64,000 nucleotides of DNA. Source: Acidobacteriota bacterium (lineage in GTDB: Bacteria; Acidobacteriota; Thermoanaerobaculia; Multivoradales; JAHZIX01). A program made the position numbers and the translations under genes. How positions within the stretch are numbered: position 1 is the first letter of the stretch; each line of letters starts with the position of its first letter. The stretch is taken from NCBI GenBank assembly GCA_034211275.1, contig JAXHTF010000001.1:120590-184589 (forward strand), in the 5' to 3' direction. This document shows positions 26,701-29,700 of the stretch, piece by piece. The notes beneath the pieces were generated by a model that saw only the letters and a list, made by a program, of their open reading frames with translations, did not search any database and was not told the origin of the DNA.

Positions 26701-29700
26701 AAGCCAGCGAAGGAGCCAGTGAGCAAACCAGCGAAGACGCCGCCCGGGTCCACGAACTCACCGCCCTCGCCGTGGCGGTAGCGGACGCCGGCACGGCCCA
26801 GGCGCCCGCGGAGCTAACGCTGGTCGCCCGCGGTCTCGCCAGCGTCGCCGGCGAGGGACCGGTGGAACCCGCCAAGGCGCTGCTCACCGGCGTGGTGGCG
26901 GTGCTGCCCCAGGAGGAGGCGAGCCTGGTCTGCCGCGGCCTCGACCTCACCGGAGCCCCGGAGGAGCCGGCTGCGCCGGCGATGGTGGAGACCCTGGCCC
27001 GGGAGCTCCTGGCGGAGGAGCCGGCGGAGACCCCGGCCGATGCGGCGACCGGGCTGCGCTGGCGCTGGGTGGCGCTGCGCGGCGACCGCCGCTTCGCCCG
27101 GCGCCTGAGCCCGTGGGCTCTCGCGACCGACGACGGCCCGCGAGACGACGGGAGCTGGCTGCGGGAGGAGGGCGCCTACCTGATCACCGGCGGCCTCGGC
27201 GGTCTCGGCTGGACCCTGGCCCGCCGCCTGGCGGAGGAGCGCCGAGCACGGCTGGTGCTCATCGGCCGCTCCCCCTTTCCGGCCCGCGAGACCTGGGACG
27301 AGATCCTCGCCGATGCCCACCACAACACGCCGCCGGACATCCGCCAGCGCATCGCCGAGATCCGCAGCCTGGAAGCCGCCGGTGCCCGCATCCTGGTGCG
27401 CTCCGCCGACGTCACCGACGCCGGCGCAATGGCGCAGGTCTTCGCGCGGGCGGAAGAAGAGCTGGGTCCCCTGGACGGCGTCTTCCACGCCGCCGGCGTT
27501 CCCGGCGGCGGCATCGCCCGCCGGCGCAGTGCCGAGGAAATGGCCGTGGTGCTGGCGCCGAAGGTCGCCGGCACCCGGGTTCTCGACCAGCTCCTCAGTT
27601 CGCGGCCGGAAACTTTCTTGGTGCTCTTCTCCTCGGTCAACGCCGTCCTCGGCGGCGTCGGGCAGGTGGACTACGCCGCCGCCAACGCCTACCTGGACGC
27701 CTTCGCCGAGGCCCGCCGCGGCGAGGGCCGCCGCGCCCTGGCCATCGATTGGGACGCCTGGCGGGAGGTGGGCATGGCCGCCGCTGGAACCCGCCTCGAC
27801 CCGCGGCGCCACCCCTTCCTGCAGCGCATCGAGAGCTCCGACGGCACCCTCACCGCTCACAGCGAGCTGCAAGCGGGACAGACCTGGGTGGCGGACGAGC
27901 ACCGGATCCTCGGCCGTGCCGTGGTCCCCGGCACCGGCCAGCTGGAGATCGCCCGGGCGCTCTTCGAGTCTCAGGAGGAGGGCGGCTCCCCAGCAAACCG
28001 GGCGGTGGAGATTCACGACGTCTTCTTCATGGCTCCCCTGGTGCTGGGCGAGAGCCCCCGGCAGGTCCAGGCTCGGCTGGAGCCCGCCGGCGACGAGTAC
28101 CGCTTCCAGCTCGCCAGCCGCCCGGCGAGCACCGGAGGCCCGGTGGGACCGGACGACGGGCCGGAAACGGTGCACGGGGTGGCGCGGGTCCGGGGCGTGG
28201 AGGCTGCCGCCGGCACCGTCGACCTCGACGCCTTGCGGCAGCGCTGCCGCAGCACGCCGCCGGAAGAGCGGCTGCGCACCTGGTGGCTGGGCTACGACGG
28301 CTCCCGAGACGACGAAGAGGTGGCGCGCTACGGCCCGCGCTGGCGCAGCCTGGTCTCCTTCTACACCTCCGGACCGGAAGCTGGCGACGACGAGAGCCTC
28401 GCGGAGCTGCGGCTGGATCCTCAGGTCGCCGGCGATCTGCGGCTCTTCTCCTTCCACCCGGGCCTGATGGACGTCGCCGTGGGCAGCCTCTACCGCGCCC
28501 GGGACCGCGGTCCCTACGCGCCTTTCAGCTACCGCCGGCTGCGCATCTTCGGCGCCATCCCCGAGCACGTGGTGGTGCACGCCCGGCGCAGAGGTCTCGA
28601 TGAGGCCAGAGCTCTTGGTGAGGAAGCGGACGGCGACGCTCCCGAGAGCCTGAGCTACGACGTGACCGTCTGTGACCCCGAGGGCCGGGTGCTGGTGGAG
28701 GTGGAGGACTACACCTACAAGCGGGTGCGCATGGATCCCATGGCGGCCGATGAAGCCAACGAAGAGGGCGAGCAGAAACCGAAGCAGGCGGCGAGACAGC
28801 CGACGGTGCTGCAGCGGGGCCTGGCTCCGGAGGAGGGCCTGCGGGTGTTGGAAGGGCTGTTGAGCCATCCAGCACCGGCGCGGGTGGTGGTCTCCACCGT
28901 CGATCTGGAGGCGCTGGAGCAGGAGATCTTCGCCCGCATGGAGCAGCTCCGGGCCCCGGCGGCGGCCCGACCGGCGCATCCGCGGCCGGATCTGGCAACC
29001 CCCTATGTGGCGCCGCGCAACCCGTCCGAGGAGCAGCTGGCGGAGATCTTCCAGCAGGTCTTGGGCATCGAGCGGGTGGGGATGGACGACTCCTTCTTCG
29101 AGCTCGGCGGCGATTCGGTGATCGCCATCCAGGCCATCGCCCGCGCCGGCCAGGAGGGCTTCCAGCTCTCCCCCAACGACCTCTTCCAACACCCGACGGT
29201 GGCACAGCTGGCGGAGCGCGCCGGCAGTGGCGAGGCGCCGGCGGCCACCCGGCTGCCGCCCATCGAGGCCACCGAGGGGGAGGTGCTGCCCCTGTCCCTG
29301 AACCAGGAACGCTATTGGGCCCGCTACCGCCGCGGTGGCGCCAGTGCTTCCCTCAACCTGCCGCTGGCGGTGGGTTTCGTAGGGCGGCTGAACCTGCCGG
29401 TGCTGGCCGCCGGTCTGCAGCTCATTCTCGACCGCCACGAGGCCATGCGGACGCGCTTCCGCCAGGGCGACGACGGGGCACAGCAGGTGGTGCTGCCCCG
29501 GCTGCGGCTGCGCATGCCCCTGGTCGACCTCAGCCGGCTACCGGAGGAGGTGTCGAAGCTGGAGGCGCGGCGGCTGCGGGATCATGAGGCGAGCCACGTC
29601 TTCGATCTGGAGCGGGAGATCCTCTTCCGCATCACCCTGATCCGGCGCTCTGCCGAAGAGCACGAGCTCTTCGTCATCAAACACCACCTGATCACCGACG

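Follow-up and report, generated by a model that had tools for sequence, protein, structure and literature searches.

The ORF3 module and its domain order

The subject of this report is a polyketide synthase (PKS) module encoded in a stretch of 64,000 nucleotides (nt) from an Acidobacteriota bacterium (NCBI GenBank assembly GCA_034211275.1, contig JAXHTF010000001.1, positions 120,590 to 184,589 of the forward strand), referred to below as the window. The window, with a G+C content of about 70%, carries three megasynthase genes that all run in the same direction – the open reading frames (ORFs) ORF1, ORF2 and ORF3 – of which the last (23742..30626, +) encodes, according to the ORF list, its translation and Pfam, a protein of 2294 residues that is a hybrid of PKS and non-ribosomal peptide synthetase (NRPS). 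In its anatomy, ORF3 is a beta-hydroxy module – ketosynthase (KS), acyltransferase (AT), ketoreductase (KR) and carrier (T) – with a dehydratase (DH) inserted after the KR, ahead of the carrier, and an NRPS condensation (C) domain behind it, giving the order KS-AT-(KR structural part)-KR-DH-T-C. On the evidence of its sequence, it is probably a complete and catalytically competent cis-AT extension module of an NRPS-PKS hybrid clade, distinguished by an atypical KR-DH didomain.

The domains were called by a Pfam hmmscan of the ORF3 translation; residue numbers refer to ORF3 and nucleotide positions to the window, and all features of the protein lie on the plus strand. The KS (residues 10–384, 23769..24893; ketoacyl-synt and Ketoacyl-synt_C) contains the motifs TACSTS, EAHGTGT and KTNVGH, and the AT (residues 528–802, 25323..26147; Acyl_transf_1) the motifs GHSLG and HAFH, all read from the translation, while the two domains are joined by a linker of the CurL/RhiE type (24897..25268; KAsynt_C_assoc, CurL-like_PKS_C and RhiE-like_linker). 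Judging by the translation, AT and KS both look active, the latter through one Cys and two His motifs. The motifs GHSLG and HAFH are an established mark of malonyl-specific ATs, and malonyl specificity is therefore predicted for the AT of ORF3.

A post-AT linker and a KR structural subdomain (residues 803–1143, 26148..27170), which include neither a DH nor a carrier, lead to the catalytic KR (residues 1144–1342, 27171..27767; Pfam KR, E 3e-50), with the Rossmann motif TGGLGGLG – within LITGGLGGLGW, from residue 1147 (nt 27180) – and the residues K1274, S1298, Y1311 and N1315. The DH, a double hotdog (residues 1357–1664, 27810..28733), comes after it and is matched by PKS_DH_N at residues 1357–1460 (E 1e-15) and by PS-DH at residues 1529–1664 (E 4e-15); its motifs are HRILGRAVVP with His1387 at nt 27900, YGPRW at residues 1530–1534, and HPGLMD with H1572 and D1577. 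The protein closes with a carrier (residues 1764–1826, 29031..29219; PP-binding), whose FFELGGDS motif (residues ~1789–1796) resembles that of a peptidyl carrier protein (PCP), and with a terminal NRPS C domain (residues 1848–2283, 29283..30590; Pfam Condensation, E 8e-75, with PCP-C didomains among its PDB matches), in which the motif HHLITDG is intact. Pfam finds no ADH_zinc or other enoylreductase (ER) match in ORF3, such as a fully reducing module of the ClbB type would have.

That the KR precedes the DH had been proposed in a first-pass annotation of this DNA, and the motifs on which it relied lie where it placed them. The order is indeed non-canonical with respect to KS-AT-DH-KR-ACP (ACP, acyl carrier protein), as no DH lies between the AT and the KR structural subdomain; ORF3 instead has the catalytic KR on the N-terminal side of the DH within one module, which is the defining layout of the atypical KR-DH didomain. 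The description of ORF3 as the final PKS module was right for its operon, but its title left out the NRPS C domain with which the protein ends. 

An inverted order of this kind might in principle be an artefact, either of annotation – with the supposed KR being a structural subdomain that follows an undetected DH – or of a mis-assembled chimera, and the AT-KR interval indeed lacks a Pfam match of its own. However, a Pfam search of this interval (residues 803–1143) at E<=10 detected no DH or carrier signal, and NCBIfam places a KR-prefix domain inside it, at residues ~892–952. The interval is also collinear with the post-AT linker and KR of the DH-less DEBS module 1 (7m7j residues 871–1337 against query 29–557), and it is matched by the segments annotated as KRs, the KR structural regions, of homologues. 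The KR itself has both its Rossmann motif and a full catalytic tetrad, and the order is common to dozens of independent proteins. One of them, MCB1055588.1 (P0121) from an Acidobacteria metagenome-assembled genome (MAG), is 67% identical to ORF3 over its full length and has the same order and the same neighbours (locus L001); as this orthologue comes from an independent assembly, mis-assembly is ruled out. The domain-boundary check suggested in the first-pass annotation thus upholds the order and excludes a structural subdomain downstream of a canonical DH, and the chance of an artefact of either sort is vanishingly small.

Catalytic residues and fold

Conservation was read from alignment columns across 61 KR-DH homologues. 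The KR tetrad – K1274, S1298, Y1311 and N1315 – is conserved among them and present in ORF3, whose KR finds its best PDB matches in the trans-AT KRs of PksJ and MlnE. At the site of the B-type LDD motif ORF3 has V-P-G-G-G (residues ~1253–1257, nt 27495–27515, +), and the A-type Trp is absent; in the KR-DH family as a whole, roughly half of the sequences are PGG-like at this site and half LDD-like. 

In the DH, the residues His1387, Pro1396, Gly/Pro/Arg/Trp 1531–1534, His1572 and Asp1577 vary little or not at all among the homologues, and ORF3 has every one of them. The catalytic residues of the KS, AT, KR and DH are all intact, including those that the first-pass annotation had singled out for checking – the DH Asp (D1577) and the Tyr, Ser and Lys of the KR (Y1311, S1298 and K1274). 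An AlphaFold model of the DH is a confident double hotdog (pLDDT 80, pTM 0.80), for which the top Foldseek matches are trans-AT and curacin DHs, with target-normalised TM scores of ~0.83–0.86 to the DHs of CurF and CurK.

If the DH were decayed or retained as a structural remnant, ORF3 would act as a beta-hydroxy module. Features that could be read in this way are an insert of low confidence between the hotdog halves (DH model residues ~171–175), further loops that are poorly conserved, and a Gly at the position four residues after the catalytic Asp, where Gln or His is usual. That Gly, however, is the norm in the family (42 of the 61 homologues), which includes the experimentally active type of the APD modules described below, and both the near-invariance of the catalytic residues – all present in ORF3 – and the confident fold model speak against decay. 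We therefore regard a non-functional DH as highly improbable.

Lineage of the module's parts

Starting from the domain order, the first-pass annotation had suggested that the module was recruited from, or behaves like, an iterative synthase of either the polyunsaturated fatty acid (PUFA) type, exemplified by PfaA, or the enediyne type (PKSE). The KR does precede the DH on the polypeptide in both PfaA and PKSE, a 2016 study cited enediyne PKSs as the sole other example of the order (PMC5073741), and the PfaA model weakly matches the KS-AT and KR of ORF3. Yet the match to TIGR02813 (PfaA) reaches 366 bits against a cut-off of 1010, and on the KR-DH region the PfaA profile aligns to the KR only (profile positions 1911–2226), not to the DH.

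The architecture differs as well. PfaA and PKSE have at least one carrier between the AT and the KR – tandem carriers in PfaA, a single ACP in the PKSE order KS-AT-ACP-KR-DH-PPTase (PPTase, phosphopantetheinyl transferase) – and none after the DH, whereas ORF3 has no carrier between AT and KR and terminates in T-C rather than in a PPTase. Both systems use iterative KSs of a separate clade, and PfaA has the partners PfaB–D; ORF3 appears to be without these features, and no pfaB/C/D neighbours, PfaC/PfaD-like genes or enediyne cassette genes are found among the window ORFs scanned. 

Its KS-AT is instead closest to modular proteins of the hybrid type: in the PDB it matches 8xjy/8xju with 784 bits and CurL with 629 bits, followed by DEBS, pikromycin and trans-AT KSs, with no iterative enediyne KS-AT among the top 60 matches, and along 888 residues it shares 45% identity with colibactin ClbI, which is encoded on the same E. 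coli pks island as the ClbB described below. The DH, too, is nearest to modular trans-AT and curacin DHs in both fold and sequence. Descent from a PUFA or enediyne synthase, or a mode of action like theirs, is accordingly a very unlikely explanation of ORF3, and this part of the first-pass annotation does not hold.

For the DH, the best-scoring PDB entries are trans-AT DHs – 5hqw (56 bits), then 5kku, 7zmf, 7zma, 5j6o and 8qk4, with most at 40–56 bits and PksJ at 33 – while matches to cis-AT DHs are marginal at 18–27 bits (fluvirucin, borrelidin and rifamycin ~26–27, CurF/K ~18). A database search with the KR-DH region returned, among the 120 best matches, 61 proteins in which the KR is followed by a DH; the rest are plain KS-AT-KR-T, and none has the order DH-KR. 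The DH alone was searched exhaustively with HMMER against 1.84 billion representatives and the best 150 matches were classified: about 127 are (KS-AT-)KR-DH-T modules or DH-T fragments, from single-module proteins or fragments of them, 18 are AT-less multimodular KS-DH-KR proteins of trans-AT type, 5 are uninformative DH-only fragments, and not one is a canonical KS-AT-DH-KR. 

In distance clustering, 124 DHs from a KR-DH context group together, and with that of ORF3, apart from most trans-AT DHs (45), and ORF3 shares with the group its signatures GPRW and the DxATG type. The ORF3 DH belongs to a distinct lineage whose nearest relatives are trans-AT DHs. The KR shows no such separation, with mean identities of 50% to the KRs of KS-AT-KR-T modules and 48% to those of KR-DH modules. 

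The carrier was described in the first-pass annotation as PCP-like, rightly so: it has the FFxLGGxS motif, and PDB structures of PCP-C didomains from NRPSs can be aligned with T-C of ORF3 along its whole length. The GGxS motif is nonetheless found in 40 of 41 KR-DH-T homologues, in 53 of 55 KR-T homologues and in every carrier of the cluster, so that a PCP-like carrier is the rule in the KR-DH-T/KR-T clade and nothing special to ORF3. On the simplest reading, which draws on similarity and not on a rooted phylogeny, KR-DH modules would be beta-hydroxy modules of the hybrid clade that received a trans-AT-like DH between KR and carrier.

Comparison with known KR-DH systems

When the KR-DH order was noticed in the rakicidin PKS RakEF in 2016, it was called unusual, with enediyne PKSs as the only parallel (PMC5073741). 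This view has been overtaken by a 2026 survey that counted, among 220,645 DH domains, 10,327 in the order KR-DH against 186,303 in the order DH-KR; 2,354 of the KR-DH cases – termed an 'atypical KR-DH didomain' and divided into seven clades – occur in hybrid PKS/NRPS (PMC13110770). Products are known for Clade I only, where an NRPS module for Ser and a KR-DH PKS module together give 4-amino-2,4-pentadienoate (APD; PMC13110770). In the BE-43547 module, the KR acts first, the reduced product builds up when the DH dyad is mutated, and both the DH His-Asp dyad and the His of HPALLD are essential, with no singly dehydrated product seen (bioRxiv 10.64898/2026.09.17.752105).

The rakicidin-type modules of APD-cyclolipodepsipeptide assembly lines (RakEF, BE-43547 module 6, vinylamycin and microtermolide) were represented here by Streptomyces sp. 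B1866 (WP_312003774.1, locus L002), which has the Clade-I signature and an upstream adenylation (A) domain with the Ser code DVWHFSLVDK. Like ORF3, this module is a KS-AT-KR-DH-carrier in an NRPS-PKS hybrid with a C domain downstream; the two KR-DH regions are 40% identical over 521 collinear residues, and they have in common the CurL/RhiE-type KS-AT linker, the DH dyad, HPxLxD, GPRW and a KR insert of the form PFPxxxxW. ORF3 differs from the APD systems in three ways: its C domain forms part of the PKS polypeptide and closes the operon, the second His of HxxxGHG is replaced by Arg, and the upstream A domain has the Gly code DILQLGMVW, and is accompanied by a monooxygenase (MOx) and an FkbM domain, in place of the Ser code DVWHFSLVDK. 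As the residue upstream is Gly and not Ser, ORF3 lacks the Ser module that marks Clade I and is probably not rakicidin-type, and an APD warhead could not be formed in the same way.

A second relative is the colibactin protein ClbB of Escherichia coli (L005:1109-10729, -), whose gene was read from the pks island of an E. coli strain reached through a blastn search of the ORF3 KS-AT DNA against E. coli genomes; the best matches listed in that search were irp1 only. The true order of ClbB is KS-AT-KR-DH-ER-T, with the KR at residues 2194–2365 and the DH at residues 2401–2653 (Pfam). ClbB and ORF3 are alike and collinear in having KS-AT-KR-DH in an NRPS-PKS hybrid, and share WxxDEHRIxGxAxxPGTG, YGPRW and HPxLxD; unlike ORF3, ClbB carries an ER behind its DH and reduces its unit completely, and the KR-DH identity is only 26%. 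In the DH distance clustering, ClbB is an outlying member. 

The metagenomic protein P0157, which had been suspected of being PfaA-like because no carrier was seen after its DH, proved to be KS-AT-MT-KR-DH-ER (MT, methyltransferase). Together with ClbB, it shows that fully reducing KR-first modules exist and that their ER lies after the DH and not within the KR.

The canonical cis-AT gamma-modules, KS-AT-DH-KR-ACP (CurF–K, DEBS module 4, rifamycin module 10), have the same catalytic set as ORF3, the same double-hotdog DH fold and the same expected net chemistry, from keto to enoyl; their DH, however, lies between the AT and the KR structural subdomain, whereas that of ORF3 lies after the KR. 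As the order seen in ORF3 recurs in E. coli ClbB and in rakicidin-type Streptomyces modules, the layout is present in well-studied pathways. KR before DH is thus no sign of the PUFA and enediyne types, as the first-pass annotation had suggested it might be, given that hybrid NRPS-PKS proteins – ClbB, the rakicidin type and those of the 2026 survey (PMC13110770) – have the same order.

Upstream modules

ORF3 also has the NRPS setting of such hybrids: four C-A-T modules are encoded by ORF1 and ORF2, and a C domain closes ORF3. According to Pfam, ORF1 (2447–13741, +) is organised as C-A-T-KS-AT-[~570 residues without a family match]-T-C-A-T, and ORF2 (13822–23745, +) as C-A-T-sulfotransferase-C-A-FkbM methyltransferase-T, with a luciferase-like monooxygenase inserted in its second A domain. 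The second module of ORF2, C-A(Gly, MOx)-FkbM-T (18184..23613, +; Pfam on segments and Stachelhaus code), is the partner directly upstream of the ORF3 KS; its A domain has the Gly-type code DILQLGMVW, with the monooxygenase inserted at about profile position 239. The four A domains of the line (~3900–5400, 11800–13400, 15300–16900 and 19600–22400) have the codes DILQLGLIWK, DILQLGL.., DILALGLIWK and DILQLGMVW; as all four are glycine-type, an unusually glycine-rich peptide-polyketide is predicted.

The ORF2-ORF3 gene pair is also found in the Acidobacteria MAG locus L001. The C-A(MOx)-FkbM-T architecture itself occurs in more than 100 database clusters, spread over Acidobacteria, cyanobacteria, myxobacteria and Chloroflexi. 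The Corallococcus example is a terminal module with a thioesterase (TE) behind it, and those of Nostoc and of a metagenome contig stand next to different genes. An obligate pairing with a KR-DH PKS was considered and rejected, the module occurring without a following KR-DH PKS. No description of the chemistry of C-A(MOx)-FkbM-T was found in the searchable literature.

Two further features of the upstream genes may be recorded here. The sulfotransferase domain of ORF2 (Sulfotransfer_3, E 4e-27; residues 1163–1374, 17308–17943, +) lies between a T and the next C, a placement unlike that of the ACP-sulfotransferase-TE off-loading of CurM and olefin synthases. In ORF1, some 570–630 residues between the AT and the carrier (residues ~1900–2530, 8147–10036, +) have no Pfam match at E<=10, are matched by PDB sequences only as far as the post-AT linker, and have next to no homologues among 5.8 billion proteins; the stretch resembles a decayed KR, with CTGAEDPALL in place of the Rossmann motif, and contains a tandem repeat of SSGTV. 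A tRNA-Arg (gcg) that ARAGORN places inside the ORF1 coding region (9925–9992, -) is probably a false positive.

Predicted chemistry

While the identity of the ORF3 module and its family membership are well supported, we infer its substrate, its product and the role of its C domain. The last carrier of ORF2 would pass its peptidyl chain to the KS, with a C-terminal glycine that the embedded MOx and FkbM domains may have oxygenated at its alpha position and O-methylated. The AT would load malonate and the KS extend the chain by two carbons, after which the KR would reduce the beta-keto group and the DH, using its His1387/Asp1577 dyad, would remove water. The resulting acyl thioester would be alpha,beta-unsaturated and bear a gamma-amino group, which makes it a vinylogous amino acid. 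The terminal C domain would then hand the acyl unit to an amine or alcohol, or release it. The linear arrangement of the domains leaves the order of this chemistry unchanged. 

For the last step, KS-AT-KR-DH-T-C recurs as the last assembly-line gene in loci L001 and L007, and this recurrence, along with the intact HHxxxDG motif, is consistent with a C domain that releases the chain or hands it over.

Several points weigh against this scheme, or at least against its details. The window yielded no acceptor for the terminal C domain. With neither an LDD nor a W motif in the KR, neither the stereochemistry at the alcohol nor the double-bond geometry is predictable. Moreover, the DH of the APD type – the only KR-DH module to have been dissected – does more than one dehydration, so that a single dehydration cannot simply be assumed for ORF3.

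This last point leads to the alternative that the didomain goes beyond one alpha,beta-dehydration, whether by elimination or isomerisation involving an oxygen installed upstream or by epimerisation during elongation. The APD-type didomain installs two double bonds and needs its His-Asp dyad to do so, and the L-to-D inversion in rhabdobranin biosynthesis has been connected with a KR-DH module; the rhabdobranin paper itself states only epimerisation during PKS elongation and makes no mention of the didomain. ORF3 has 40% identity and all dyad residues in common with the APD-type module, and the upstream module has oxygenase and methyltransferase domains, in a pairing that is kept in the orthologue. 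On the other hand, glycine has no stereocentre to invert and, unlike Ser, does not provide the delta-hydroxyl for APD chemistry, so any extra chemistry of the DH would not be the same as in APD formation. The occurrence of C-A(MOx)-FkbM-T with no KR-DH PKS after it, as in Corallococcus, shows that the two are not an obligate pair, and ClbB shows that a KR-DH module is capable of ordinary reduction chemistry. Chemistry beyond a single dehydration thus seems unlikely, although it is the alternative to which we give most weight.

A more specific proposal, and a still more doubtful one, is that the conserved pair makes an electrophilic unit that has not been described before: a gamma-oxygenated or gamma-methoxy vinylogous glycine (4-acylamino-4-methoxy-but-2-enoate), or a derivative formed from it by DH-assisted loss of methanol. 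If so, it would be another case of a KR-DH didomain performing more than one step, as in the formation of the APD warhead.

Implications

As the layout has already been described, ORF3 is an uncharacterised addition to a recently described kind of module. For annotation, it serves as a warning that KR before DH is not evidence of an iterative PUFA or enediyne synthase; the layout instead helps to spot hybrid lines whose units are vinylogous amino acids, reactive warheads such as APD in the rakicidins among them. Six of the seven KR-DH clades had no known product in the 2026 survey (PMC13110770), and the present cluster and its Acidobacteria orthologue provide a concrete and complete orphan example among the KR-DH hybrids. 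What is unusual here is the upstream Gly module with its MOx and FkbM domains and the sulfotransferase domain embedded in the NRPS; it is on the orphan, non-APD clades of KR-DH modules and on these upstream tailoring domains that the value of the example mainly rests.

Neighbouring genes

Immediately downstream of ORF3 lies a gene for a 461-residue protein (30643–32028, -) without a family match, which occupies the same position in L001; in both loci it is followed by an ABC transporter and a CsgG-like lipoprotein. Further along, about 2 kb at ~39900–42000 have a G+C content near 55% and include two orphan ORFs (39902–40567 and 41110–41991, both +); this stretch, in which no Rfam match was found, may be acquired DNA. 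It is followed by what looks like a separate small cluster (42002–47125, -) that comprises an FAD-dependent monooxygenase (42002–43162), an AMP-dependent ligase (43155–45026) and a type III PKS (45965–47125). Given this separate cluster, the stand-alone ligase more probably works with the type III PKS than with the NRPS-PKS line.

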